Source: a candidate division CPR3 bacterium GWF2_35_18 (lineage in GTDB: Bacteria > Patescibacteriota > CPR3 > GWF2-35-18). From it: a stretch of DNA of 64,000 bases. The DNA lies in assembly GCA_001771135.1 (NCBI GenBank), contig MESW01000002.1, positions 5,315-69,314 of the forward strand, read 5' to 3'. Position numbers and translations under genes: made by a program. The notes under the pieces were generated by a model. The model was not told the origin of the DNA. It worked only from the letters and a program-made list of their open reading frames with translations, and ran no database searches. Positions 27,407-63,825 of this stretch are shown here, in pieces. Each line of letters opens with the position of its first letter. Position 1 is the stretch's first letter.

Positions 27407-27694
27407 TTTATTTTAGGATAAAAAGTTGGAAAATAGTGACAATTCCAGCGGAAATACAGGCGAAATAGAGAATGATAGAAAGGTCGGAGACTTCTTTAAG
27501 AAGTCTTTTTTCCTGTTTAAGGTGTAGGGTGTGATGATTATGATTTCTTTTTACGGTTTTGTTTTTTACTAAATAAGTCATAGATAATCTTTAAAATAAG
27601 AAAATGAAACGAAGTGAGATATTATATAAAAAATTGATTAATAAAACAAGAGGGAAAGATAGTTAAAAAGTAGAATTTTGAAGTATAAATTTAA

Positions 27695-28423
27695 TCATCT
27701 ATTAGAAGAAAATCGAATAATAAAATCTATGATATCAAGATTGCATCTTATTTTTAAATCAGTTTTGGTTTTTCCTGGAATTTCAGTACAAATACTATAA
27801 GGAGTATGTTCAAGATACATCTTGTGTTCAAAAGATCCGTCTTCATGATCCATGAAAATACCTTGTGAAGCAACTTTACCGTACATTTTTTTCATATGTC
27901 GGATTGGAAAAAACTGAGATACTTTATTCACAATTTTTCGGTAAATTGCTTCATTATTTTTATTATATGCATATAGATAAAAATATTTTTCATCACAATC
28001 ATCATGTAAAGCATGAAAAAAAAATATTTTTTCGTTATACAAACTTTTTAATAAATATTTATTTTCGGTTAGTAATTTTTGGGGATTACAAAAACATCTA
28101 TTTAAATCTTTTTTCTGATAGTTATATCTACTATTGGTGTTAAACCCATACGGATTGGCTACGGGAAAGATAATTATTTTAAGATATAAGGGAAGATCAT
28201 AACGATTCAAATTATTTATAAATTGAAGAATAGTCAAAGGCCCTGATTTTTCATGACCGTGAATTCCAGAGGAGAAACATATTGTTTTTCGTGCATTGTA
28301 TCCGTTAATTACAATTTTATATAACGGGTAATTTTTGTTAACATTGCCAATTTTAAGAAAATCCAAATTTTTTTTACTACAAGCGATTTTTAATTTAGAA
28401 ATATAATGAAGGTATTCATTCAT
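27695..28423 (-). CDS. AstE/AspA (succinylglutamate desuccinylase / aspartoacylase, M14-like) family zinc deacylase or carboxypeptidase
   Basis: Zn-binding HxxE in SSGIHGHEKSGP and a second His in FFHALHDD. Size about 240 aa. Last gene of a 4-gene minus-strand operon. Confidence 0.62.
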   Translation of the reverse strand: MNEYLHYISKLKIACSKKNLDFLKIGNVNKNYPLYKIVINGYNARKTICFSSGIHGHEKSGPLTILQFINNLNRYDLPLYLKIIIFPVANPYGFNTNSRYNYQKKDLNRCFCNPQKLLTENKYLLKSLYNEKIFFFHALHDDCDEKYFYLYAYNKNNEAIYRKIVNKVSQFFPIRHMKKMYGKVASQGIFMDHEDGSFEHKMYLEHTPYSICTEIPGKTKTDLKIRCNLDIIDFIIRFSSNR

Positions 28424-29765
28424 GAGGGTCGGTTAATACAGAGAATAATTCTTTTTCTATCATTTCAAGACGATTTAAATCTTTTGCTAAAATCATGTAT
28501 CCAATTGTACCAATTGCTAAGAAACTTACAATGCTGGGTATAACTCCTTCACCTTTTTCTTTTGAAAATAGAAGATGTGATATTTTTTCTTTAAATACTG
28601 AGTAGTTATTAATTTCTTTTTTTACTGGAAGATTATCACGTGAGAATACTGAAATTTTATTTTGAAAATTTTTCCCAAAAAGATGAGTCGCCGTTTCAAA
28701 AATATGAGTTCCCCCAGTTCTCCGTAGATTTGATTCGACCGCGTAAACATTGTGTTTTTTGTCAATTATAAGGTCAATGTCGAAATTCCCCCTATATCCC
28801 TGTTCTATAAGTGCTTCTCCAAATCTTTTACAGCTATCAACAACACGATTAATATCAAAATTAAAATAATTTTCAATTTTTTTTGAGATAATTATTCCTT
28901 CAAAATAATTATCTTCTCTCAGTCTTTGAAGGCAATTATATTGATGTTTGAGATCTCCGTTAATTTTAAATTCAATTGAAGGGCTTCTATCATAAACTGA
29001 AGTGTTAGTTTCAATAAATTCTTCAACGACAAAATTTTCTTCAAACCACATCTTATCATTATGTTTTTCTGTTAGGTATTTTTTGAATTCAATTTCATTG
29101 TTAGGAAGGTTAGAGATATTATAAGGAACTATTCCAAATCCACTTGTTCCGCGATTATATTTAAATACAAAATTAGTATTTTTTTGATAAAACCACCAGG
29201 CAGCATCCAGTGCTTCTTTAAGGTCGTTAACAATAAATCCAGGGGGAATTTTTACAAAACTATCTTTATCAGTAGCTCTTTCCCAAAGTTCTCGAAATCC
29301 TACTTTACAGTTATAGTGGTCACGAATAAAACGATTTTTTGGAGAGATGGTTTCGGGTGTAGTAAACTGTAATTTATTTTGTTTTAATATTGTCAGGAGT
29401 TCAAAAAACTCTGAAGTGGCATAGTAGGGAATGATTTCAATATCTGGATTTTCCCTAATTATCTTTTGTATTTGATTTAATAAGGTTTTGTCATCCAGAA
29501 TATCTTTACATATAGATTCTGAATATTTATGGGGATAGAGGTTTATTATTTCATAACTTAAAATTCTACGAACATCTTCTAGAAATTCATGATTTAAAGG
29601 TAGAGAGGTGATTAAAATTTTAGAATTATTAGCATAAAAAACAGCGCGATCAGATTCTAAAATATCTGATTGTATGAGTTTTTCGGCTTCTGTCGGATCT
29701 GACTTACGGTATGTTTGGTAATATGTTTCAGCTAAGTTGGAGATAATTAATGATTTATATTGCAT
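28416..29765 (-). CDS. ATP-grasp fold ligase with an N-terminal pre-ATP-grasp-like domain
   Basis: ATP-grasp elements: K...GTSGFGIV (the Gly-rich flexible loop), VVEEFIE and AVESNLRRTGG (the E-x-N Mg-binding pattern). Confidence 0.55.
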   Translation of the reverse strand: MQYKSLIISNLAETYYQTYRKSDPTEAEKLIQSDILESDRAVFYANNSKILITSLPLNHEFLEDVRRILSYEIINLYPHKYSESICKDILDDKTLLNQIQKIIRENPDIEIIPYYATSEFFELLTILKQNKLQFTTPETISPKNRFIRDHYNCKVGFRELWERATDKDSFVKIPPGFIVNDLKEALDAAWWFYQKNTNFVFKYNRGTSGFGIVPYNISNLPNNEIEFKKYLTEKHNDKMWFEENFVVEEFIETNTSVYDRSPSIEFKINGDLKHQYNCLQRLREDNYFEGIIISKKIENYFNFDINRVVDSCKRFGEALIEQGYRGNFDIDLIIDKKHNVYAVESNLRRTGGTHIFETATHLFGKNFQNKISVFSRDNLPVKKEINNYSVFKEKISHLLFSKEKGEGVIPSIVSFLAIGTIGYMILAKDLNRLEMIEKELFSVLTDPHE

Positions 29766-29775
29766 GAGAAAATAG

Positions 29776-30957
29776 TTATTTTAGTTCTAACTTTCGGAAG
29801 AGATTTTTATATTTAGAAATAAAAAACTTTACCTTATCAAGGGGAATTGCCGGTACATAATGATTATTAATTCCGGTCATATCAGTTGCCATGCATAAAG
29901 CATTCAAAATAGCTTCTTCAGTGGAATCGACAACAGCCTCATAAAGAGGATCAAGTCGTGGATCGTCTAAAGACTGAAAGGTGTTGACCATATTCCGGCT
30001 ACGGCGAGATAATTTATTAGCATTGGAAAACGCAATAATAATTTCTCCGGATCCATTTGCCGCGTATGATCCTACTCTTCCAATTCCTAAAGCAGAGCGT
30101 GTTGCCAGTTTTGAAAGTTGTCCCGGAGTTAAGGGAGCATCAGTTGAGACTACGGAGATAATACTTCCATACAATTCTTGACGTTTTTCAAGAGATTGGT
30201 ATCTTTTTTCTAAAAGTTCTCCTATGGGAATTCCTCCAAAACGAAGATCTCGAATATTTCCAAAATTACTCATCACAAGAACTCCGATTGTGTATCCACC
30301 CATTTTTTGGGGGAGTTTTCGTGAAGAAGTTCCAATTCCACCGGCAAAATCACAGGTAATCATTCCAGTCCCACCACCGACGCAGCCTTCTTCGACTATT
30401 CCACTAGATGCTTTTTCAAGTGCTTCGTAAACATGTTGACTTTTAACGTGACGGCCAGAGATATCATTCAGCCAAGAATCATCACATTCTCCAACTAAAG
30501 GAATAATAACTTCATCTTCGATTCCGATTCGGGGATATTTTCGGACGTAAGACTTGACCATAGCTTCAGAACATGTTCCGACTGAAAAAGTATTTGTGAG
30601 AAGAATTGGAGTTTCAATCGTACCCCATTCCATGACTTGAGTGAGTCCCGAGAATTCTCCAGCTCCATTTAAAATAAATCCACCTCCAAAAATTTGGTTT
30701 TGGTATACATCATCTTTAGAGGGAATAATTGCCGTTACTCCAGTACGTACTGGTCCCATTCCTGGTTTAAGTTCTCCAGATCCTTGAATTAAAGTTACAT
30801 GTCCCACTTTTACGCCTCTAACATCTGTAATCGCATTCAAATCACCAGTACGAAACCTTCCTATTGAAAGGCCAATATCTCGGACACGCATTCTTTTGGT
30901 AGGTTGTTTGGGTTTAAAAAATTCCATAGATATAGATTTAGAAACTACATTTACCAT
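29776..30957 (-). CDS. DmpA / S58 family (L-aminopeptidase D-Ala-esterase/amidase, OAT-fold) peptidase
   Basis: RDIGLSIGRFRTGDLNAITDVRGVKVGH, a self-processing Gly-Ser/Thr-type site region (GGGTGMITCDFAGGIGTSSR), and a family-typical length of about 390 aa. Confidence 0.78.
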   Translation of the reverse strand: MVNVVSKSISMEFFKPKQPTKRMRVRDIGLSIGRFRTGDLNAITDVRGVKVGHVTLIQGSGELKPGMGPVRTGVTAIIPSKDDVYQNQIFGGGFILNGAGEFSGLTQVMEWGTIETPILLTNTFSVGTCSEAMVKSYVRKYPRIGIEDEVIIPLVGECDDSWLNDISGRHVKSQHVYEALEKASSGIVEEGCVGGGTGMITCDFAGGIGTSSRKLPQKMGGYTIGVLVMSNFGNIRDLRFGGIPIGELLEKRYQSLEKRQELYGSIISVVSTDAPLTPGQLSKLATRSALGIGRVGSYAANGSGEIIIAFSNANKLSRRSRNMVNTFQSLDDPRLDPLYEAVVDSTEEAILNALCMATDMTGINNHYVPAIPLDKVKFFISKYKNLFRKLELK

Positions 30958-31003
30958 ATTTTATCATATTTTCAGAAAAACCCCTGTTTATTATGGTAAA
31001 AAC

Positions 31004-31987
31004 CTATATTCCATATCTTTTTTGCGCACTTTCTAGGATTTTCTGAATAACATCTTTAACACTCAGGCCATAAGAAGATGCAGAGATATAAATGGAAGCT
31101 CCTTCCTGAAGACAGGGGAGAGCGTTAATCTCAATGAAATAAAGCTTTCCGTCTTTTGAAAGTCGATAATCAATTCGTCCAATATCCTTGACATTCAATA
31201 TCTCGTAAGTTTTTAATGATGTTTTTTGAATTTCTTTGATAATTTCTGGAGAAAGATCTTCGGCAATATTTACTATTACCTGAGAAGAGAGGTATTGTTT
31301 GAGCTTAAAATCGTATATTTTGTAATTACCTTGTTCGTGTTGTTCAAAGGTATATAGACAAGCTGGTAAGACTCCATGTGTTTCTGGAAATGCAGCTTGT
31401 AAGTAAGGAACAGTTAAATCAACCCCATCAACGAATTCTTCAATGATTATCCCTTCTGGAAACTGTTGGAGAAATTTTTCAAGATGGTCTTTCATCTCTG
31501 TAAGATTTTCATGAATATTTTTCAGAGATATTCCACGAGAGCTCCCTTCAAAATTCGGTTTAATAATGACGGGAAATCTTAGAGGAAATTTCTCAATGTC
31601 CTTCATTTTTTGGACAAAGATCCAGTTTGGAGTTCGAATGCCATTTTTGTGAAGCATCAATTTGGTGACACTTTTATCTAGAGTGACCGTACAGGTGTAC
31701 GCATCTGATCCGGCAAAAGGAATTTCTAAATTATCAAATAATGCGGGACAGAAAGCTTCTCGGAATCTTCCATTTTGCCCTTCCGCGGTATTGAAAATAA
31801 TATCTGGAGAAAATTCTTTTAAATCTCGAATAATCTCTGTAACGTCTTTTTTAACGTCAATCAATTTGACCGTATGACCAAGACCTTGAAGCTCTTTATT
31901 AACTAATTCTATAGTTTCCGGAGTATCAAATTCGGCTTCTTCCGGAATATCATTTTTTTGAATATTATAAGTAAAAGCGACTTTCAT
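31004..31987 (-). CDS. D-alanine--D-alanine ligase-like ATP-grasp enzyme
   Basis: AGGAG RBS. Ddl-like N-domain (MKVAFTY...), PFAGSDAYTCTVTLDKSVTK, an ATP-grasp core (IIKPNFEGSSRGIS ; IIEEFVDG ; FIEINALP). Confidence 0.7.
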   Translation of the reverse strand: MKVAFTYNIQKNDIPEEAEFDTPETIELVNKELQGLGHTVKLIDVKKDVTEIIRDLKEFSPDIIFNTAEGQNGRFREAFCPALFDNLEIPFAGSDAYTCTVTLDKSVTKLMLHKNGIRTPNWIFVQKMKDIEKFPLRFPVIIKPNFEGSSRGISLKNIHENLTEMKDHLEKFLQQFPEGIIIEEFVDGVDLTVPYLQAAFPETHGVLPACLYTFEQHEQGNYKIYDFKLKQYLSSQVIVNIAEDLSPEIIKEIQKTSLKTYEILNVKDIGRIDYRLSKDGKLYFIEINALPCLQEGASIYISASSYGLSVKDVIQKILESAQKRYGI

Positions 31988-32285
31988 TTTAGCTCCTAAA
32001 TAATTTAAATATTCCCATATTTTTGGGTTTTAAAATTAAATATTTTATTTTCATTAAAGGGAGAGAGAGAATATAATCATCGCCACAAGACGATGGAGGC
32101 TTGTCTTCATTATTTTCCATGTATGTGGTATTTAGTTTGACTTTTAAACCAAATACCCCTTTGTCTGTTTATCAAAAAATGATAAAAATAATATCCCAAA
32201 TTATGCCTTTTTTTATAAAAATGTCAATAGAGTTTTCATTATGATAAAATGAAATTCTAAATAAAATATCAAAGAGAATAATTTT

Positions 32286-33506
32286 ATGTTCAAAAAGAAA
32301 CTTTCAATCTCAGAGAGGGGAGAAAAAGCTCCCGCCTCTCCGATTCGCAAACTGGTTCCTTTCTCTGATCAGGCAAAACAAAAAGGAATTAAAGTTTATC
32401 ATCTTAATATTGGTCAACCTGATTTTCATATCCCTCCAGAGATTCAAAAAGAATTATTAGGTCAAAGTGCTAACCTAAAAATTCTTTCGTATGCACATTC
32501 TCAAGGAGAAAAGACGTTAATTGAAGCTTTTGTAAAATATTATGCCGATTGTGAGATAGATATTAAAAGTGAAGATGTTCTCATTGCTTCTGGAGGAAGT
32601 GAAGCAATTATTTTGGCGATGGCGGTAGTTTTAGATCCAAAAGATAATATGATTGTTTTTGAACCTTTTTATGCCAACTATTTGGGTTTCGGATCAATGT
32701 TGGAAACCGAGATTATTCCAGTGAAGTTAGATCCAAATAAAGGTTATCATCTACCTTCAGAATCAGAGATTGCGGCGAAGATAAATAAGAGAACCAAAGC
32801 GATCTTTTTTACAAATCCCAATAATCCTACTGGAACTGTTTTTACGAAAAAAGAGATGGAGATTATTTTGAAGATTGCCCGTGAACATAATCTGTTTATT
32901 ATTTCTGACGAAACATATCGTGGTATCTGTTTTGATGGAGTAAAAAGCTATAGTATGTTAGAGATAGCACAAGAGATAGACAGAGAAAGAATTATTGTTG
33001 TGGACAGCCTTTCTAAAAGAATGAATATTACCGGAGCTAGAATTGGAGTCGTTATTTCAAAAAACAAAGAAGTTATGAGTGGGGTTTTGAAGTACGCACA
33101 GGCGAGGCTTTCTGTTGCCACTCTAGAACAACTGATGGTCGTTCCGATGTTAAAAAATTGTATACCGTATGTTGAAGATTTAGCTAAACATTACAAAAAT
33201 AGAAGAGATGTGTTTTTAAAGGAATTGGAAAAGGGTTTGGAAATAAAAATCCATTATCCGGAAGGAGCTTTTTATACGATGTTAAAGCTTCCGGTTAAAA
33301 GTTCTGAAGACTTTTGTAAATGGTTACTGACCGATTTTTCTTATAAAAATTCTACGGTAATGCTTGCTCCCGGTTCGGGGTTTTATGCTACTAAAGGAGA
33401 AGGTAGTAATGAGGCTCGAGTAGCTTTTGTTTTGAATGAAGAGGAGCTTAAGAAAGCTGCAGAGGTTTTGATTCACGGAATAAAAGAGTATCAAAAATTG
33501 GGTTAG
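32286..33506 (+). CDS. PLP-dependent class I/II aminotransferase
   Basis: SLSKRMNITGARIG (the SxSK...G.R.G lysine motif), NPNNPTG and DETY motifs. Confidence 0.85.
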   Translation: MFKKKLSISERGEKAPASPIRKLVPFSDQAKQKGIKVYHLNIGQPDFHIPPEIQKELLGQSANLKILSYAHSQGEKTLIEAFVKYYADCEIDIKSEDVLIASGGSEAIILAMAVVLDPKDNMIVFEPFYANYLGFGSMLETEIIPVKLDPNKGYHLPSESEIAAKINKRTKAIFFTNPNNPTGTVFTKKEMEIILKIAREHNLFIISDETYRGICFDGVKSYSMLEIAQEIDRERIIVVDSLSKRMNITGARIGVVISKNKEVMSGVLKYAQARLSVATLEQLMVVPMLKNCIPYVEDLAKHYKNRRDVFLKELEKGLEIKIHYPEGAFYTMLKLPVKSSEDFCKWLLTDFSYKNSTVMLAPGSGFYATKGEGSNEARVAFVLNEEELKKAAEVLIHGIKEYQKLG

Positions 33507-33509
33507 CAA

Positions 33510-34034
33510 TTATTCCCAGGTCAAGTGAAAGATTCTTTTAACCCCGATCTGTTCGATTTTAATTTGAGGTATTTTTTGAAAAGAGCGGACGCCTTCTTCT
33601 ATTAGTCCTTGAAAATAAGTTTCCGGATAAGGATCATTTCCAAAAACAAAATCAGCTTTATTTCCCTGCATATTTTCAATATCACAATTTAGTCCGGTGT
33701 AAAAAGTTTCCATGAGTTTCTTAAAGTTTTCAATAGTTTTTTCTAGGGTGGATGAAAAAAGTTTAAAGATTACTTTTCCAATTTGGGTGTCCTGCATCAG
33801 TTTATAGTCCCAGATTCCTAATTTTCTGTACGCTTCGGCGTCAGTTTTGCCATAAATAATTTCGGCTGCAGTTTTTTGGCGGATTAAAGATTCTTCTATC
33901 GGATATAGTTTTGTGGGGAAGTAATGTTTTTTCTCAATTCTTTTATCAAACTCAGCAAGTCCGACTTTTCCTTTAACCTTAGCAACTTTTTCACGGTCAT
34001 TATCAATCATGAAACCTCGTAGAAATACGGACAT
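33510..34034 (-). CDS. Hypothetical protein (174 aa)
   Basis: AAAGGAG RBS before the internal ATG at 34034 (the track ORF started at an upstream ATG at 34070). No motif recognised. Confidence 0.45.
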   Translation of the reverse strand: MSVFLRGFMIDNDREKVAKVKGKVGLAEFDKRIEKKHYFPTKLYPIEESLIRQKTAAEIIYGKTDAEAYRKLGIWDYKLMQDTQIGKVIFKLFSSTLEKTIENFKKLMETFYTGLNCDIENMQGNKADFVFGNDPYPETYFQGLIEEGVRSFQKIPQIKIEQIGVKRIFHLTWE

Positions 34035-34323
34035 GAAATCTCCTTTGGTAAAAAGTCTTAGACAAGACAAATTAATTTTCGCATGAAAAATATAAAATTA
34101 CAATTTTCTATAAAAAGTTTAATTATTTGTATTTAAGATAAAACAATGTTAAAATCACTGTGTTCTCAAGTATTGCGCATGTAAGAGTGAAAGGCTTTAC
34201 TTGGGAGATAACAATTTACGGAAGCTTTTTGAATGATTCCTACTCTTTTGGCGCATCTTTTTTGCTCCCCAAACGGTTTCTTCACAAAGAAGCTCCTTTC
34301 CCTTTAAGGAGGTGAAATAAATA

Positions 34324-54171: not shown

Positions 54172-54958
54172 AGAAAATAAAAGAATCGGAACTACGAAAA
54201 AGAATTGAAACGACAGAAATAGATGTGGAAGAAGAGGTACGTGTTTAGAACTTTAAAAAAAGAATATTTCGTTAATCTCCGGAAATAATCCGGAAAATTT
54301 TAAATTCTTCTTAATGAAGGAAGATTGCAGTTACTGCAAGGAAGTAAACTGGAAGCTATTGATTTAGTATCTAGTTCGCTTTCTTGCAGGAAGTTGAGGT
54401 CTGTTAGGAAAATCTTTCCGCTTTCATAAGTCGCAAGCGCAGAAAGGATCTGCAGATTTTCAAACCAGAATACTCAGACGGTTGGGTAATAGTCAGGTTG
54501 ACCCTGTGAATCCAAACGAAGTACTGCAAAAAGTGTCGTTCCCGGTTTTTCGGGCCTGAAGGGTTGTACCCCGTAGGCGCCTGGGTAGGACCCAATTATA
54601 GGTCCGCCTAACCGGAAAAAGACCTCTTCCTTTGGAAGGGGCATATCGTGCCTGTCAGGTAATAGGCCTTGCAGTTTTTGTAGAATTTATCCGAAGCTGC
54701 TTTCAGAGCAGTCTTAGATAAGCGGATAGAGGAAGCAAAAATAAAGAGGCTGAAAAACTTGAAGGGCGAAATTGGACAATTTCTTTCAACTCCCCAAACC
54801 GAAAGGGTTAGTAACTTGAGAGGGAACGGTCTCCATTTGTTTTTCTGGTTCCAGTCCAGCTGCCGAATACAGTAGGCAAAAGATGAAAGGACTCAGACTG
54901 AACTTTCAAGAGTGAAACACTCTCTTAGGCAAGGGGTAGTATTCAAGGAGAATGATAT

Positions 54959-56341
54959 ATGGAGACTAAAACCTCCACCCAGAGCCGCAAGGGGCTCTAT
55001 AATATCTTTGCGTCCGTTATCGTAGCCCTGATGCTCGTTGCCGTTTTCTTCGGCTTCGTTGGCACTGCGGCCGCTCAGGAGTCCGTTCCTGACTACCAGC
55101 CCGTGGTTGACCCTTATCCGGTCACCGTGGGCGTTACCACCGCGATCAGCCTCAGCCCGGCACCGACCGCGACGGCCGACATCCACTGGACGATCAACGC
55201 CTCTGATGGTAGTCTCGTGCTGGATACCACCGAGTTCACGGTGACGCATGTGTTCACCAATGCCGGCGATTACACCGTTGGTGTGACGATCAGCGACACG
55301 AATGGCGTGTATGTGAATGCCTGGTTGCTGAACGTGGAAGAGCCGGTTTTGACACCTGCTGCTGCCTTGACCAACCTGTTGACCGCTGTGATGGCGCCTG
55401 CAAGCCCTGATAAAGCCGCTGATGTAGCTGAAGCTGTTGCCGATGTTCAGCGCGCTCTGGGCGTGGTTGTTCGCGGCGCCGTCCAGTCCAATGAAGGCGG
55501 TTCGATCGAACTTCGCCCTGTCCAGCCGATTGCGGCAATGAGTGAAGAAGCTCGCGCTTTGGCTATGGACACTGCTGCTGGCACCGATCTGCACTTCGCA
55601 TGGGGTGCTGGATGGCACAATCATCAGGCCGATTTGGGCGCTGGGACTCAACTGTTGAGCGGCGTCTTCTTCGACTCTGACGATCCGGCCTATTTCGGCA
55701 CCACCGAACCGATCTCTGGCGGCCTCTGGGTGTCTTCGATGTACACCCCCAACGTTAGCCTGGAAACGGCCGAATATACCACGACCTTCACTTCTACCCA
55801 GTGGGTAGACAGCGATGGCAACGGTATGTTTGACCTTCTGGCGGTTGGTAGCCCCTGGGATGGTTCTGTCGTCACCATGAGCCTCGATTACGAAGGCGTA
55901 TACACCGAGACCTGGAGCGTCCAGATCGGTATGGAACCGAAACTGATTAGCACCGAAGGCACCAGCCCTGCACCGGCGACCGCCGATGCTTTCCGCACCA
56001 GCGCTGCTGCTGATACATACCCATTCGTACCCGGTCAGGGTTGGGATGTAGCTGCCAATACGGCTTACACGGACACCGTCTTCTACGGCGCTTACTTCGG
56101 TGGCGCTGATTTTGGCGGCGTCTGCAATGACCACTGCGTGGTTAGCTATGCTGGGCGGAGCTATGAATCGACCGATGCTGATGGCAACGGGACGTACGAT
56201 TTCTTCCTGCCCGGCGCTGGTTCTGCCGAAATCGAAGGCCCTGGGGCTTGGGAATTCACCGTCACCGATGACGATGGCAATACCGAGACCTGGATCTTCA
56301 TCCTGGGCGCCACTCCTCAGATCGTCCCCGCTGGCGAGTAA
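54959..56341 (+). CDS. GC-rich (about 58 % GC) secreted protein with Ig/PKD-like and DxDGNG calcium-binding-like repeats
   Basis: AAGGAGA RBS. Signal anchor with an AAAQE cleavage-like site. DSDGNGMFD and DADGNGTYD motifs. Third codon positions are GC-rich, unlike neighbouring genes. Confidence 0.65.
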   Translation: METKTSTQSRKGLYNIFASVIVALMLVAVFFGFVGTAAAQESVPDYQPVVDPYPVTVGVTTAISLSPAPTATADIHWTINASDGSLVLDTTEFTVTHVFTNAGDYTVGVTISDTNGVYVNAWLLNVEEPVLTPAAALTNLLTAVMAPASPDKAADVAEAVADVQRALGVVVRGAVQSNEGGSIELRPVQPIAAMSEEARALAMDTAAGTDLHFAWGAGWHNHQADLGAGTQLLSGVFFDSDDPAYFGTTEPISGGLWVSSMYTPNVSLETAEYTTTFTSTQWVDSDGNGMFDLLAVGSPWDGSVVTMSLDYEGVYTETWSVQIGMEPKLISTEGTSPAPATADAFRTSAAADTYPFVPGQGWDVAANTAYTDTVFYGAYFGGADFGGVCNDHCVVSYAGRSYESTDADGNGTYDFFLPGAGSAEIEGPGAWEFTVTDDDGNTETWIFILGATPQIVPAGE

Positions 56342-56407
56342 CAATCAAAACTATGCTTCAACCCTGAGGCTGTCTGCAGAAATGCGGATAATAAATAACT
56401 AATGGGT

Positions 56408-56480
56408 GGAAACCTGCCGGCCTCCTGGCCTGCGCGTTTGTACGTCCTGATCTGCGCTCTTTGTGCGCCGGCAGGTTTCC
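56408..56480 (+). terminator. Long GC-rich hairpin downstream of the 460-aa gene (putative terminator)
   Basis: GGAAACCTGCCGGC ... GCCGGCAGGTTTCC, a perfect 14-bp inverted repeat with a 45-nt loop, followed by TTGTCTTTTC. Confidence 0.5.
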
Positions 56481-56890
56481 TTGTCTTTTCATCTTAGTCT
56501 GGTTTTATCTTGACCAGTCCCAAAGCCTATCATTAAGTTGATAGATCCTCAGGAAAACAAGATAAGTGAAGGATTTTTCCTTCCTGGAGTTATAGAGAAA
56601 ATAAAGAATCTATAGCAAGACTCCAAGATGAGGCAATTCCTCATCGAGCTAGTTTGCATGAAAATGCAGTTAAAATTGGTTTGGTCATTGTGAAGGTCTG
56701 TTGTTTTTGTATTGAAGATACATTTATTGTCACCCTAAAAGTGACCTGTCCTTATCATCTTCAAAACACCAACCAACAAAACAACACAATCATCAACCCA
56801 ATCTAGCTTCCCTCTTGTGCTTAGCACCTGATGAAGGCTTGGGAAGATCAAGCCGAAAGAGGAAAGTTAAATTATATATATTAAATCAAA

Positions 56891-59985: not shown

Positions 59986-60373
59986 TATTTATATTCCTTA
60001 TTCGGCTTGAACTTCCCAAGCCAGCGGTTCAATTACTTGAACGACTTTGTTTAGATGAGTCTAAACAATCTTCAGGTGCTACTTTGCCCCGCCAAAGGCG
60101 GGGGCACATAAGGAAAGGTAGGGAGAGGAGATAGAGTTTGTGAGGTTGGTGTGTGAAGATGTGAAGAAAAGACCAAGATTTGGTCTCACAAATTGTTCTA
60201 TCTCTCTCCCTAGCGGGTTCTTTAATCGCCAAAAGGCGACTTTCGGTGCCCACGGGGTTTATTCCGTGTTACATTGTTCGGGTTTAGACCCGTGGGCACT
60301 TTTTAGCGGGGAACCAAGTCATGCGGTTCAAGGCATGTCTTTTTTAACACTATGCCCGCTTTCGAGCGACTTT

Positions 60374-61687
60374 TTATGGCGCGAGATTAACGTGCCAGCG
60401 CTCGATGATATTTCCGACTTTGATCTCTACCGTCCAGGGGGCGGTGCTTGAGCAACCGGCATCAAAGATGCCGTTGCCATCATCGTCGGTTGCCGTAAGG
60501 CTTTCATCATTGCAAGTGATTTGCATATCGGCGTTATCCACGCTGATTGACAGAAATTCGACATTCAGCGCGAACAAGCCAAAGAGGAAGTCTTCCTGTT
60601 CTGGATTGCTCCAGCCCTGACCGGTGGTGAGAGTGATCGTCCCGCGATCGATGACCGTGGGAGGAGTGTAGTCTTTGTATGCCAGGGGGATAAATATCTG
60701 GTACGTTGTGGGCGCTGGTGAGATGACCGTGACGGTCATGGTGTCACTGACAACATTTCCTGCGACGTTGGTGGCAGCAACCTCAATAACTTTTTCACCC
60801 GGAGTTTCCCAGACGAGGGCTTGTTGTACGCCTAACGACAGTCCGTAAAACTCAATCTCTCCGAGGTCAGTGGCCGTGAAGTGGTAGGTGACGTTGTTAG
60901 TTGCGGTGACGTTCGTCATCGCTGTTAACGTGATTTCTTCACCAATATATCCATTGAGAGGGCCTGCAATTTGCACCCATGTGACGGGCACTATCTGGTC
61001 TGAAATGATTATTTGATTGTAATCCTGGAGACGATACTCAGCCCAAGCAATCATTCCGACGATTTCGGTTTGGCCAGTTTCAGTGAGCACCATAGTGTCT
61101 GTCAGAGTGAAAACTTCATTCGGGATCAGAATTCGATCTCCGCATTGTCCCCACGGAGCCCGTAAGGATACTGTTGCCGTCATGTTGCCGATGTTAGTGA
61201 TGCTGAACTCAACATCGAAGGGTTGATTCACCTGGACTTCTGCAGGGGAATTCACGTACACAGTGAAGAAGGCGTCGTTGCGAACGATTTTAGCCGGAGT
61301 TTCGTTAGTGACGGTGAATGTCCATGTTTCGGTGATGATTCCGTCAGTAATGATGTAGAGATCGTTGATAGGACTCAAGAAAGCCTGGTCGTTATCCATG
61401 CTGAGTGTCCAGGTATAGCCATCAGAGCGGGTTACGATTCCTTCACCATAGGCGTGGATTCCGTCTTGATTGTCCGCATAGAGATGGTTAATTGGGCTGC
61501 CGGCTTCAAAACCTTCGTTTAAAAGATCCATCTCAGGGTTCAGGATGGCTTCTACGGTGATAGTATTTACAGTTTGTGCAGCAGTCGCATTCTGCGTATC
61601 GGCAAAGCTCAATAGAGCAATGACAGCTACGAGCGCGATAAGGATAGAAATTGCCGGGGTTAAGCGGCGGATAGCATAAGCGTTCAC
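60374..61687 (-). CDS. GC-rich secreted protein (437 aa) with a C-terminal DDDGNG Ca-binding-like module; paralogous in part to 54959..56341
   Basis: GTG start with an AAGGAGA RBS 7 nt upstream. Signal peptide ending ATAAQT. The C-terminus (TATDDDGNGIFD...WTVEIKVG...ERWHVNL) resembles TDADGNGTYDFF...WEFTVTDDDGNTETWIFIL of the 460-aa protein. Confidence 0.62.
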   Translation of the reverse strand: MNAYAIRRLTPAISILIALVAVIALLSFADTQNATAAQTVNTITVEAILNPEMDLLNEGFEAGSPINHLYADNQDGIHAYGEGIVTRSDGYTWTLSMDNDQAFLSPINDLYIITDGIITETWTFTVTNETPAKIVRNDAFFTVYVNSPAEVQVNQPFDVEFSITNIGNMTATVSLRAPWGQCGDRILIPNEVFTLTDTMVLTETGQTEIVGMIAWAEYRLQDYNQIIISDQIVPVTWVQIAGPLNGYIGEEITLTAMTNVTATNNVTYHFTATDLGEIEFYGLSLGVQQALVWETPGEKVIEVAATNVAGNVVSDTMTVTVISPAPTTYQIFIPLAYKDYTPPTVIDRGTITLTTGQGWSNPEQEDFLFGLFALNVEFLSISVDNADMQITCNDESLTATDDDGNGIFDAGCSSTAPWTVEIKVGNIIERWHVNLAP

Positions 61688-61999
61688 AGTTTTTCTCCTT
61701 CAGAAAAATTGTATCGGAATTTTTCCGCGAACCAATGGTTGGCGGATTGACTAATAGAGGAAAATAGTTGATTTTTAGCCTGAAGAGAAATAGTTCCTCT
61801 TACTTTACAAGGCTTTTTAGGTTGACTGCTTTTAAGCAGATTGATATTTGAACGCTTCGTGCAATACTCCACTAGGGCTTTCTTTGCGCTAGTGTTGCTC
61901 TTTGATTTAATTCCTAAATCCCAGGTTTCCAATCTGAGAGAGGATCAAAGAGGATTATTTCTTGCAGGAAGAAGTCTTGGGGACAAGGCATTTTCATAT

Positions 62000-62097: not shown

Positions 62098-62976
62098 ACT
62101 ATTTATTCCCATGATTTCTCCCTGCAAGTATTTGTCTCAATCCTTTTTAAAGTACAAAATCTAAATGTCTTCTTCCGTTTCTTTATTTTCTTACTTTGTT
62201 TTTCTGTAGTTTCGATGGTTTTTAGCTAGAAGAAGGGGAGAGATTTTGTCTGGAGAGATTTTGATCTCTCCACTTCTTTTTAACCAAAAAACCGCCTCTG
62301 GATGGGAGACGGTCAGTGTACCAAAATACTACTTTAAAGCAGTATTTTAAGTCAATTGTCTCTCTCCAGACATATTCAGTTTGTTATTATGTATAATAGC
62401 ACAAATTAAGGGAAAAGTCAATACTATAGGATTAAATATGTGTTTTCTTTAAATTTGGAGAAAGATTAAGAAAAGGGGAAGAGGAGAGGGAAGAGCGAAA
62501 GAAATAAAAGTGGAAACAAGGATAGTTTCAAAAGAGCCAAGGCTCTCCTTTCTATGCCGGACCGTGGTGGTCTTTTGGCTTTTGAAAGTAGCTCCTTGAG
62601 TCTACACTTTTTATCTTTCAGTCTTCCCGTCCACCAAATTGGTGAACTACCGTTTGTATATATTTTAGTTGGATACGGTGGTCCAACCTCCAGAGGGGGG
62701 AGGGAATGGCAAGCTGATCAGGCACACATGGATTTTGTCCACGTTCGCGCGACTGTCATTCTCCTCCCCACTTGGAGTCAAAAATTGTGAGGTGTTTGTG
62801 CCACCAGAATTATCTACAGTCTCCTCAGGCTGTAAAGTTCAAAAGTGACACGAATCCCTATTCGTCCAACAATTTCTTAGACGAATTCGTCTTTCTCTTT
62901 TATCTTCTTTTTCTACCGAGCGGTCCGAGCAGGGTAAATCAATCAGAGAGAAAGGTCTCCCAATCACCTCAAAGCT

Positions 62977-63390
62977 TTACGGCCTTGGCCCGATAGTGGG
63001 CAGAGCAGGTGTTTGGGTGGGGGTGGGGGTCGGTGCGCCAATCAGGGTGTTGCCTGCAGCAGCAACTGTAGCTTTAGCGTTTGTGACGCCATTTGCTGCT
63101 TGTGTTGCCGTCGCCTGAGCGTTGACCAGATTATTGGCCGCTTGTGTAGCAGCATTCTGCTTGTTCTGCAGATTCTGGATAGCGCTTGCCTGATTAGCTT
63201 CAGCGTCTTTGAGTGCGTCAACTGCACCATAAACGCCAGCCGAATCATCTGTCGCGGGGGTCGCGGTCTCTTTGACGGTTATTTCTACTGGAATCCAGTC
63301 CCATGTTTCTGTGGGAAGGTAGTAGTATAACGCCGTCACGAGGACGACTAACCCGAGCAATGCCAATGCATAAAGCCCAAGTTTCTTCAC
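62977..63390 (-). CDS. GC-rich small membrane-anchored Ala/Thr/Gln/Asn-rich protein (137 aa)
   Basis: GTG start with an AAAGGAGA RBS. N-terminal TM helix. Low-complexity AANNLVNAQATATQAANG repeats. Pro/Thr-rich C-terminus. Confidence 0.5.
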   Translation of the reverse strand: MKKLGLYALALLGLVVLVTALYYYLPTETWDWIPVEITVKETATPATDDSAGVYGAVDALKDAEANQASAIQNLQNKQNAATQAANNLVNAQATATQAANGVTNAKATVAAAGNTLIGAPTPTPTQTPALPTIGPRP

Positions 63391-63825
63391 GTTATTCTCC
63401 TTTCTCCATTGTGACGCCTTTAATGCGCGTCAGAATTTGAATTTACTTCCTCTCGGACCAGAGGAAGACGGGGGTTTTCCCCTTGATTTTCCGGTAAGGG
63501 AGAAAGGTTGTAAAAGCAACCCTTTTTCCTTACCAGAAAGAGAAAGGAGGAGGAATTTTTCCATCTTTTGATGGTAAATAATAAGGAACTTCTCCATAAA
63601 GTCGAAGTATAGTGTTGTTATTCTTCGAGCGAAGTCGAGAAGTACCATGATAATAGGTGCTAGATTGTTTTTCCTTTTCAGGCTTAAAGGAGAGGAGAAT
63701 CTGTGATTCGTTGGAGTGAATTTTAAACTCTCCTCACCTTGAGTCAAAAAAGGAATATTTTACTATTATAAATATGGGGAAAAGACTTTAAGACAAGCTT
63801 ATTATCTCTCTCCATATACAAAAAA

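Follow-up and report, generated by a model that had tools for sequence, protein, structure and literature searches.

What would a bacterium with a tiny genome do with two ligases of different families and two hydrolases encoded in one compact operon? The question is raised by four minus-strand genes in a 64-kb stretch of DNA (hereafter the window) from the candidate division CPR3 bacterium GWF2_35_18, a groundwater member of the candidate phyla radiation (CPR, or Patescibacteria). In order of transcription the genes encode a Ddl-family ATP-grasp ligase (Ddl-like), a DmpA/BapA-type aminopeptidase of MEROPS family S58 (S58), a second ATP-grasp ligase with a pre-ATP-grasp domain (PreAG) and a short zinc hydrolase of the AstE/AspA or M14 type (M14-like). 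With somewhat better than even confidence, we favour the view that the operon serves the cytoplasmic, ribosome-independent assembly and trimming of a short peptide by the two ATP-grasp ligases and the exopeptidases. Alignments indicate that catalytic residues and motifs are intact in all four enzymes, the two ligases of different families as well as S58 and M14-like.

An earlier note on this DNA, made by reading the letters, had described four tightly packed, overlapping genes and a divergent aminotransferase gene. The list of open reading frames (ORFs) agrees with that layout (Table 1), and profile searches bore out the assignment of all four proteins to Ddl-like, S58, second ATP-grasp and AstE/M14-like families. 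Ddl-like and S58 are separated by 46 nucleotides (nt) and S58 and PreAG by 10 nt, and PreAG overlaps M14-like by 8 nt; the overlap and the 10-nt gap suggest coupled translation. In its tight spacing and single promoter-like site the four-gene block is transcription-unit-like. The promoter-like site ranks first among those of the region and agrees with the consensus at 11 of 12 positions. Because the same operon occurs, identical, on at least six independent contigs from groundwater metagenomes or metagenome-assembled genomes (MAGs), including GCA_001772215.1, the arrangement is real sequence and not an assembly artefact.

Judged by its sequence, Ddl-like is non-canonical and not a standard D-Ala-D-Ala ligase. 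It matches the Pfam domain Dala_Dala_lig_C (E = 1.3e-27) and stays below the NCBIfam cut-offs for Ddl (PRK01372, 152.3 bits versus 243; TIGR01205, 135.1 versus 245.65). On every equivalog model tested it scored far under the cut-off, and Van-type ligase models gave 60-88 bits versus cut-offs of 495-775. Aligned with E. coli DdlB (28% identity over residues 48-321; the DdlB reference was checked to be identical to 1iov/2dln), the window protein keeps all ATP, Mg and catalytic residues, namely K105, K143, E183, K230, R271, D273, E286 and N288, which match DdlB K97, K144, E180, K215, R255, D257, E270 and N272. Among the D-Ala binding residues of DdlB (the E15-S150-Y216 triad, H63, S281 and L282), S150 alone is retained. 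The substrate-site changes are E15 to P, H63 to E69, E68 to R76, Y216 to Q231 and, around DdlB 281/282 where the alignment could be one residue out, S281 to A297 and L282 to S298. The N-terminal GGxSxE motif of DdlB is absent as well.

In a neighbour-joining tree the window Ddl-like groups with module 1 of fused double Ddl-like proteins. These fused modules, the window protein and the CPR Ddl-like proteins encoded beside PreAG have in common an NxAE(G/A) signature in place of the LHGxxGEDG motif of DdlB, and a long branch lies between them and DdlB. DdlB and VanA-type ligases share family, fold and all ATP, Mg and catalytic residues with the window enzyme, which differs from them in lying, as far as the window shows, outside a mur/dcw context and in belonging to the 'NxAEG' clade, whose members are usually tandem-fused and then followed by S58. 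Neither a second Ddl homolog nor any mur gene was found within the window. We considered and rejected VanH-A-X-Y-type remodelling, since the Van models fail and the operon and its neighbours include no gene for an M15 peptidase, a dehydrogenase, a racemase or a two-component system.

The second ligase, PreAG, is predicted to have a PGM1-type fold including the pre-ATP-grasp domain, but it is an ortholog of no characterised enzyme. As a single sequence, the window protein scored 21.6 bits on PF18604 (PreAtp-grasp), under the gathering score of 27.5, and matched BesA weakly (1e-5); against the equivalog cut-offs it reached 38.8 versus 750 for BesA and 27.1 versus 475 for LdmS. The family profile matched 8ynd from Streptomyces (3e-17, positions 35-382), PGM1 (2e-15), BesA (2e-11) and LdmS (3e-5) in the PDB. 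We also examined the AlphaFold model of P0047, a family member 34% identical to the window PreAG (predicted local distance difference test score, pLDDT, 92.5; predicted template modelling score, pTM, 0.89). Its template modelling (TM) scores were 0.74/0.80 with PGM1, 0.71/0.81 with 8ynd and 0.70/0.72 with BesA (range 0.70-0.82), and about 0.53-0.66 with LdmS; the next fold class, biotin carboxylase, gave 0.55. ATP-grasp catalytic residues are conserved in the alignment. Family profile and model therefore agree in placing this enzyme, whose affiliation the earlier note had left open, in the PGM1/BesA/LdmS fold. A graspetide or RimK-type identity for the 449-aa protein was rejected, as fold and profile side with PGM1 and not with microviridin-type ligases; the graspetide ligases described from CPR belong to a family other than PreAG (PMC8939145).

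The enzymes that PreAG resembles in fold, N-terminal pre-ATP-grasp domain and catalytic residues, namely PGM1 (pheganomycin), 8ynd, BesA (an L-propargylglycine-L-glutamate ligase) and LdmS (an L-Asp-L-Met ligase), join amino acids or peptides by amide bonds without a ribosome or a non-ribosomal peptide synthetase. PreAG is just 13-16% identical to them and has Ddl-like and S58 as partners. Its family occurs almost solely in MAGs with CPR/Patescibacteria titles, as opposed to Actinobacteria or Firmicutes, and one sub-clade has an N-terminal EDKPPS tail or leader, an element that we have not seen described for known PGM1-type enzymes. The family comprised 57 clusters in an indexed search and 340 representative clusters at E ≤ 1e-30 in an exhaustive profile search of 1.84 billion proteins.

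To survey gene neighbourhoods we took one genome per species, which gave 31 PreAG loci. Most are titled Patescibacteria or CPR (WWE3, Roizman-, Wirth-, Davies-, Woese-, Moranii- and Saccharibacteria), and eight carry the record titles 'uncultured Gammaproteobacteria' or 'uncultured Pseudomonadales'. A Ddl-family gene directly adjoins PreAG in 14 of the 31, and several loci hold two or three tandem PreAG paralogs; S58, M14-like and the aminotransferase occur in none of them. Two loci (L017 1788-7122 and L019 4020-9353) show one Ddl-like gene followed by three tandem divergent PGM1-type paralogs, which suggests that up to four ligations may follow one another as on an assembly line. Just upstream of this cluster, on the opposite strand, lies what is by eye an M17 leucyl aminopeptidase-like gene (NTDAEGRL motif). 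In two other CPR MAGs (L011, 6929-7990, and L018) a GNAT protein of about 350 aa (Acetyltransf_6, with a weak FemAB_like match) is encoded directly upstream of a stand-alone PGM1-type ligase.

The peptidase between the two ligase genes is strongly homologous to DmpA and BapA over its full length (PF03576, 371.7 bits versus a cut-off of 23.9, E = 4e-111). Its closest solved relative is Pyrococcus 2drh (8e-100), which carries the annotation D-aminopeptidase, followed by DmpA 1b65 (6e-69) and BapA 3n2w (2e-67). The Gly/Ser self-cleavage site is intact: YG/SIISVVSTDAPL (the slash marking the cut) aligns with 'GSIIVVLATDLPL' of DmpA, which corresponds to DmpA G249/S250, and the G/S within 'YGSIISVVSTDAPL' aligns with this DmpA segment and with 2drh. 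Characterised S58 enzymes of the DmpA/BapA type favour D-, beta- or small N-terminal residues. They were, to our knowledge, discovered through activity screens on synthetic substrates, and we know of no established physiological pathway for them. DmpA-type enzymes act on beta-Ala peptides (PMC9235088), and the functions of bacterial aminopeptidases are largely unexplored except in a few model strains (PMC13344977).

What distinguishes the window S58 from DmpA and BapA is its gene context, which its orthologs extend by a systematic link to double Ddl-like genes. The nearest relatives of the window Ddl-like (43-58% identity) form a large subfamily with names mostly from Myxococcota and some from Bdellovibrionota and Patescibacteria. 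We retrieved 80 metagenome loci of this subfamily, 31 of which were informative in having 2.6 kb or more of downstream sequence. In 29 of these 31 the first Ddl-like module is followed directly by a second, giving a fused protein of about 700 aa, and an S58 gene 54-65% identical to that of the window then follows in 26; no case of S58 without module 2 was seen among the 31. NCBIfam would call the fusion a 'D-alanine--D-alanine ligase', but only because the scores of its two modules sum. PreAG and M14-like genes occur in none of the 80 loci. Other neighbour clusters were set aside, D2, D11 and D1 as antisense or high-GC ORF-calling artefacts, and D4 (HemB-like by eye) and the C-terminal half of D6 (DUF1343/NamZ-like by eye) as unused evidence.

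The closest relative of the operon itself, L040, has the same order Ddl-like-S58-PreAG, with 58, 78 and 61% identity respectively, and the M14-like gene is missing there. The window operon thus appears to be a mosaic, in which a module-1 ligase and S58 represent the widespread M1-M2-S58 type, the PGM1-type ligase stands at the place of module 2, and the M14-like gene is species-specific. GC content at third codon positions lends mild support to a mosaic origin, being low in PreAG and M14-like (0.19-0.20) and typical in Ddl-like and S58 (0.24-0.27), where the 10th percentile of window genes is 0.24.

We postulate the following sequence of events. Ddl-like would convert the carboxylate of a small amino acid into an activated acyl-phosphate, to which it couples a second amino acid to give a dipeptide, and the PGM1-type ligase would add a further residue or join the dipeptide to another amine, taking the role that the second fused Ddl-like module may hold in the widespread M1-M2-S58 version. 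S58 would trim the product from the N-terminus and M14-like from the C-terminus, unless the latter removes an N-acyl group. The two hydrolases could in this way serve maturation, turnover or recycling of a product beyond the reach of ordinary peptidases.

The peptide is probably built from something other than ordinary L-alpha-amino acids. Unusual residues are hinted at by the preferences of S58 enzymes, by the likeness of M14-like to an N-acetylornithine deacetylase, and by genes for 2,3-diaminopropionate (Dap), diaminobutyrate and beta-amino acids in a sister cluster. This cluster is conserved around the Ddl-like and PreAG pair in one CPR clade (L023, L025-L031, L034, L035 and L037; for example L025 3829-11237). 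Its genes, listed in Table 1, would supply diamino and beta-amino acids of the non-proteinogenic kind (SbnA/SbnB for Dap, KamA for beta-amino acids) beside two amide ligases, and the whole looks like a complete kit for a peptide of such residues. Comparable logic is known: cyanophycin synthetase and cyanophycinase pair an ATP-grasp synthetase with a dedicated hydrolase, and the dapdiamide pathway combines an SbnAB-type Dap supply with an ATP-grasp ligase. The likeness is one of logic only, amide ligases being encoded beside a hydrolase for an unusual product, with SbnA/SbnB in the sister clusters; the window operon has no orthologs of these systems, and a Mur-ligase-like domain, an S51 peptidase and genes for fumaramoyl chemistry are likewise missing.

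Table 1. Positions and assignments of the operon genes, its upstream elements and neighbour, and related gene modules (window coordinates unless a locus is named)
Feature	Position	Strand	Length	Basis or remark
Ddl-family ATP-grasp ligase, non-canonical ('module 1' type, FNTAEG signature)	31004-31987	minus	327 aa	ORF list and Pfam
S58 (DmpA/BapA-type) self-processing N-terminal nucleophile (Ntn) aminopeptidase	29776-30957	minus	393 aa	PF03576 and PDB matches
PGM1-type ATP-grasp amide/peptide ligase with pre-ATP-grasp domain (PreAG)	28416-29765	minus	449 aa	family profile and fold
Short AstE/AspA or M14-like zinc hydrolase (deacylase or carboxypeptidase)	27695-28423	minus	242 aa	Pfam and PDB
Leader ORF	31989-32120	minus	43 codons	ORF and conserved N-terminus
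Promoter-like site TTGACA-16 nt-CATAAT	32200-32227	minus		consensus match only; about 75 nt upstream of leader ORF
Aminotransferase ORF, divergent from operon	32286-33506		406 aa	class I/II, PRK07568
Double Ddl-like + S58 module (loci L047-L123)	L049 5995-8055 and 8055-9188; L093 6001-8115 and 8115-9404			modules FNTAEG and FNIAEG, S58 immediately after; high-GC contigs
KamA-family radical-SAM aminomutase	sister cluster			244 bits versus cut-off 199
SbnA	sister cluster			403 bits versus cut-off 350
SbnB	sister cluster			330 bits versus cut-off 327
Diaminobutyrate-transaminase-family enzyme (TIGR00709)	sister cluster			457 bits versus cut-off 402
C39/BtrH-like peptidase	sister cluster		168 aa	

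The fourth gene of the operon has a narrower distribution. M14-like matches the Pfam families AstE_AspA_cat (PF24827, 48.5 bits versus 25, 1e-12) and Peptidase_M14 (PF00246, 29.8 versus 21.6, 6e-7), and the nearest named family is the Shewanella-type N-acetylornithine deacetylase (NF052223), which it matches over its full length with 76.9 bits, far under the cut-off of 400. Its PDB matches are the Shewanella structures 2qvp, 3ieh and 3b2y; the HxxE motif ('IHGHE'), the second His ('FHALHDD') and the catalytic Glu ('CTEIPG') align with their counterparts there. The family amounts to 17 clusters in 5.8 billion proteins. Its closest relatives outside the species (46-50% identity; L126 6001-6726 and L128 6001-6666, one of them named Magasanikbacteria) lie directly downstream of mreB-mreC-(mreD)-PBP2, a context that hints at a peptidoglycan-peptide substrate for the family. 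As a conserved operon partner M14-like was rejected: neither L040 nor any of the 111 other ligase loci contains it, and its relatives lie in unrelated contexts.

How much of the earlier reading survives these comparisons? The claim that the set is not a standard peptidoglycan kit is supported. Ddl-like is below threshold on every Ddl model, its D-Ala-site residues are replaced, a long branch separates it from DdlB in the neighbour-joining tree, and the ligase and S58 linkages recur. The notion of one functional gene set holds for part of the operon, through the adjacency of the two ligases, the link of double Ddl-like to S58 and the Ddl-like-S58-PreAG order in a relative of about 60% identity, and finds no support in the case of M14-like and the aminotransferase. 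The latter, once suggested as a precursor supplier, proved to be a generic PRK07568-type enzyme of class I/II (509 bits versus a cut-off of 389) that lies beside ligases in no other locus, and we rejected it as a pathway member. The peptide-synthesis interpretation is accordingly supported in part, namely in its non-standard gene set, ligase placement, linkages and small ORF, and unsupported as to those two as conserved partners. Because these are not conserved partners, the four genes are better described as a lineage-specific mosaic than as one conserved unit.

Several points weigh against peptide assembly and trimming by this operon. First, M14-like is joined to the ligases in this species alone. 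Second, the genes for the closest PreAG homologs (59-65% identity) stand by themselves, so PreAG does not strictly depend on the other three. Third, the M1-M2-S58 metagenome loci may be phylogenetically clustered (high-GC, Myxococcota-type), for which reason the counts of Ddl-like and S58 adjacency are not independent events. Lastly, the pairing of a hydrolase with a synthetase would also suit pro-drug activation, proofreading or cell-wall remodelling.

Cell-wall metabolism is the strongest of the alternatives, although we consider it unlikely. Here the operon would build, remodel or recycle stem peptides or cross-bridges of peptidoglycan: Ddl-like would make an alternative D-aminoacyl dipeptide, the PGM1-type ligase would add a side-chain or bridge residue in the manner of the enterococcal ATP-grasp D-Asp ligase, S58 would be a D-aminopeptidase or an analogue of D-Ala-D-Ala dipeptidases (VanX/DppA-like), and M14-like a stem-peptide carboxypeptidase or amidase (VanY/MpaA-like). 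Membership of the Ddl family and the lack of a second Ddl in the window would fit, but the D-Ala-site residues of DdlB are not conserved and the Van ligase models stay far below their cut-offs. The annotation of 2drh as a D-aminopeptidase, the mreB-mreC-PBP2 neighbourhood of the two CPR relatives of M14-like and a 51%-identical Ddl-like gene near Mur ligase and Amidase_3 genes in L041 point towards the wall, whereas no mur, VanH/X/Y or racemase genes were found near the operon. Diamino acids occupy position 3 of stem peptides, and the diamino-acid synthesis genes of the sister clusters could be read accordingly, as could the GNAT/FemAB-like gene upstream of PreAG in L011 and L018; yet the characterised structural relatives of PreAG all make free dipeptides or natural products, and its sporadic family suits an accessory rather than a core wall function. 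The M1-M2-S58 module, moreover, is found in high-GC contigs and the close Ddl-like homologs bear Myxococcota names, and Myxococcota possess canonical ddl.

The operon is headed by a small ORF, which emerged from a search for small ORFs near the ligases such as the earlier note had envisaged. It encodes MENNEDKPPSSCGDDYILSLPLMKIKYLILKPKNMGIFKLFRS and stops 1 nt short of the Ddl-like ATG. In L040 a 45-codon ORF in the same position (584-721; MEINEEDKPPSS...) overlaps the Ddl-like ATG, and both hexamers of the promoter-like site align with TTGACT-16-GATAAT upstream of that operon. The two leader peptides are alike at their N-termini only (MENNEDKPPSS versus MEINEEDKPPSS). Since the first 11-12 residues are kept despite eight synonymous changes, including Ser TCG to AGT, and one replacement (N3 to I), selection appears to act on the amino-acid sequence of the leader.

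The same motif, in the form of an acidic ...(E/D)DKPPS with KPPP and DKPGG variants, recurs as an N-terminal tail in many PreAG proteins (P0009, P0021, P0038, P0039, P0042, P0044 and P0047), where it precedes the first conserved strand by 8-12 residues; no such tail is present in the window PreAG or in many other family members. It also heads separate ORFs of 28 and 36 codons directly upstream of a PreAG paralog (L017 5657-5743 and L019 7889-7999), and in L009 it stands on the Ddl-like protein, the first cistron there. Its strict form occurs 5' in eight ligase units and in L040, versus 0.003 expected per region, and in none of 150 more distant PreAG representatives, which makes it a sub-clade feature. 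The ends of all four free leader ORFs fall no more than 8 nt from the start codon of the following ligase. Their C-termini are not conserved, and the one in L017 resembles a truncated duplicate of the PreAG 5' end.

With a conserved N-terminus and a variable C-terminus, the ORF could be read equally as a precursor peptide, as a leader with a regulatory role or as what remains of a PreAG 5' end. We prefer to see in it a translationally coupled peptide with a proline pair (KPP), which would derive from duplication of the PreAG 5' end and be kept for expression control; it probably tunes expression of the first ligase. Searched at E ≤ 1 with the 420-nt leader, Rfam gave no match, hence no known riboswitch, T-box or attenuator. 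A terminator-like hairpin lies within the leader ORF (32078-32095, minus strand); it begins at the second Pro codon of KPPSS and has seven pairs followed by a T-rich run. We do not regard it as a real terminator; no counterpart was seen in L040 by eye and it is probably due to chance. A second hairpin, at 27490-27508, was rejected as terminator of the operon, as it suits the convergent Nramp gene better and its folding z-score is merely -1.08.

A role for this element as carrier or primer seems to us quite improbable, more so than a role of the operon in the cell wall. The ligases would then build a non-proteinogenic peptide on the disordered acidic EDKPPS element, whether free leader or enzyme tail, with the Lys epsilon-amine or an Asp/Glu carboxylate as possible attachment points, and S58 and M14-like would release or trim it. 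Such a scheme recalls LysW amino-group-carrier pathways, pearlin scaffolds, RimK-type tagging and PGM1 ligation, although the enzymes are unrelated to those of the LysW and pearlin systems. In the free ORFs it is the amino-acid sequence of the motif that is conserved, and the motif recurs as free ORF or in-frame tail across the sub-clade, but the C-termini of the free ORFs vary, at least one of them looks like the truncated duplicate mentioned above, the window PreAG and many relatives are tail-less, and the distant representatives lack the strict motif altogether. In the AlphaFold model of P0047 tail residues 1-12 have a pLDDT below 50 and are predicted to be disordered; this would make the tail accessible, yet it is undocked. 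The operon does contain exopeptidase types for both the N- and the C-terminus, and PGM1 offers a precedent in that it ligates onto ribosomal peptides (PMC8939145); the short distance from the free ORFs to the next start suits translational coupling or regulation at least equally.

That a divergent housekeeping D-Ala-D-Ala ligase and three independent enzymes are simply packed together in a streamlined genome is the least credible alternative and very improbable. In its favour, CPR genomes are compact with short intergenic distances common, no other Ddl homolog was found within the window, M14-like and the aminotransferase are not conserved partners and the closest PreAG homologs stand alone. 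Against it, the Ddl-like and S58 linkage recurs in L040 as well as in 26 of the 31 informative loci, Ddl-like adjoins PreAG in 14 of 31 genome loci, Ddl-like falls under all Ddl model cut-offs with its D-Ala-site residues replaced, and the 8-nt overlap and 10-nt gap suggest coupled translation. A known anti-phage defence system was rejected too: at E ≤ 0.01 neither the leader peptide nor any of the four proteins matched a PADLOC component model.

CPR bacteria make do with minimal genomes and are believed to obtain the greater part of their building blocks from hosts. A dedicated pathway for a small peptide would be costly in ATP and, if kept in such a genome, is likely to matter for the lifestyle of the organism; the product could belong to the cell envelope, act as a compatible solute, store nitrogen or be directed at the host. 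Clusters of ATP-grasp amino-acid and peptide ligases are already known (PGM1, BesA, LdmS and the dipeptide-antibiotic ligases). A full-text literature search turned up no account of Ddl-like paired with S58, of the PGM1-like family of CPR, of the sister cluster or of the EDKPPS leader or tail. The double Ddl-like and S58 module, undescribed in the searchable literature, would give the S58 'beta/D-aminopeptidases' a physiological context. Equally undescribed there are a PGM1-type family of mostly CPR-titled MAGs, often beside Ddl-like and in one clade with a supply of Dap, diaminobutyrate and beta-amino acids, and a KPP-containing leader or tail at the 5' end of ligase units. If the carrier scheme were true, it would amount to a carrier-peptide-templated small-molecule pathway in ultra-small CPR bacteria, with the double Ddl-like and S58 module as its carrier-free cousin.

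Some further features of the window deserve mention. Between 52963 and 54896 about 1.9 kb lack any ORF of at least 70 aa in an otherwise densely coding window; Rfam, searched over the whole window at gathering thresholds, matched no family there or elsewhere. Three islands (54500-56500, 60000-61700 and 62500-63500) have a GC content of 47-59% versus a background of about 34%, and the first two contain long ORFs with no Pfam match (54896-56344, 483 aa; 60377-61687, 437 aa); they may represent foreign DNA or unusual low-complexity proteins. Next to the aminotransferase gene lies a gene on the minus strand (33510-34070) for a DUF2378/TIGR02265 protein, a family named after Myxococcus xanthus. Together with the largely Myxococcota-type nearest relatives of Ddl-like and S58, this neighbour may reflect gene exchange between CPR3 and Myxococcota-like bacteria.

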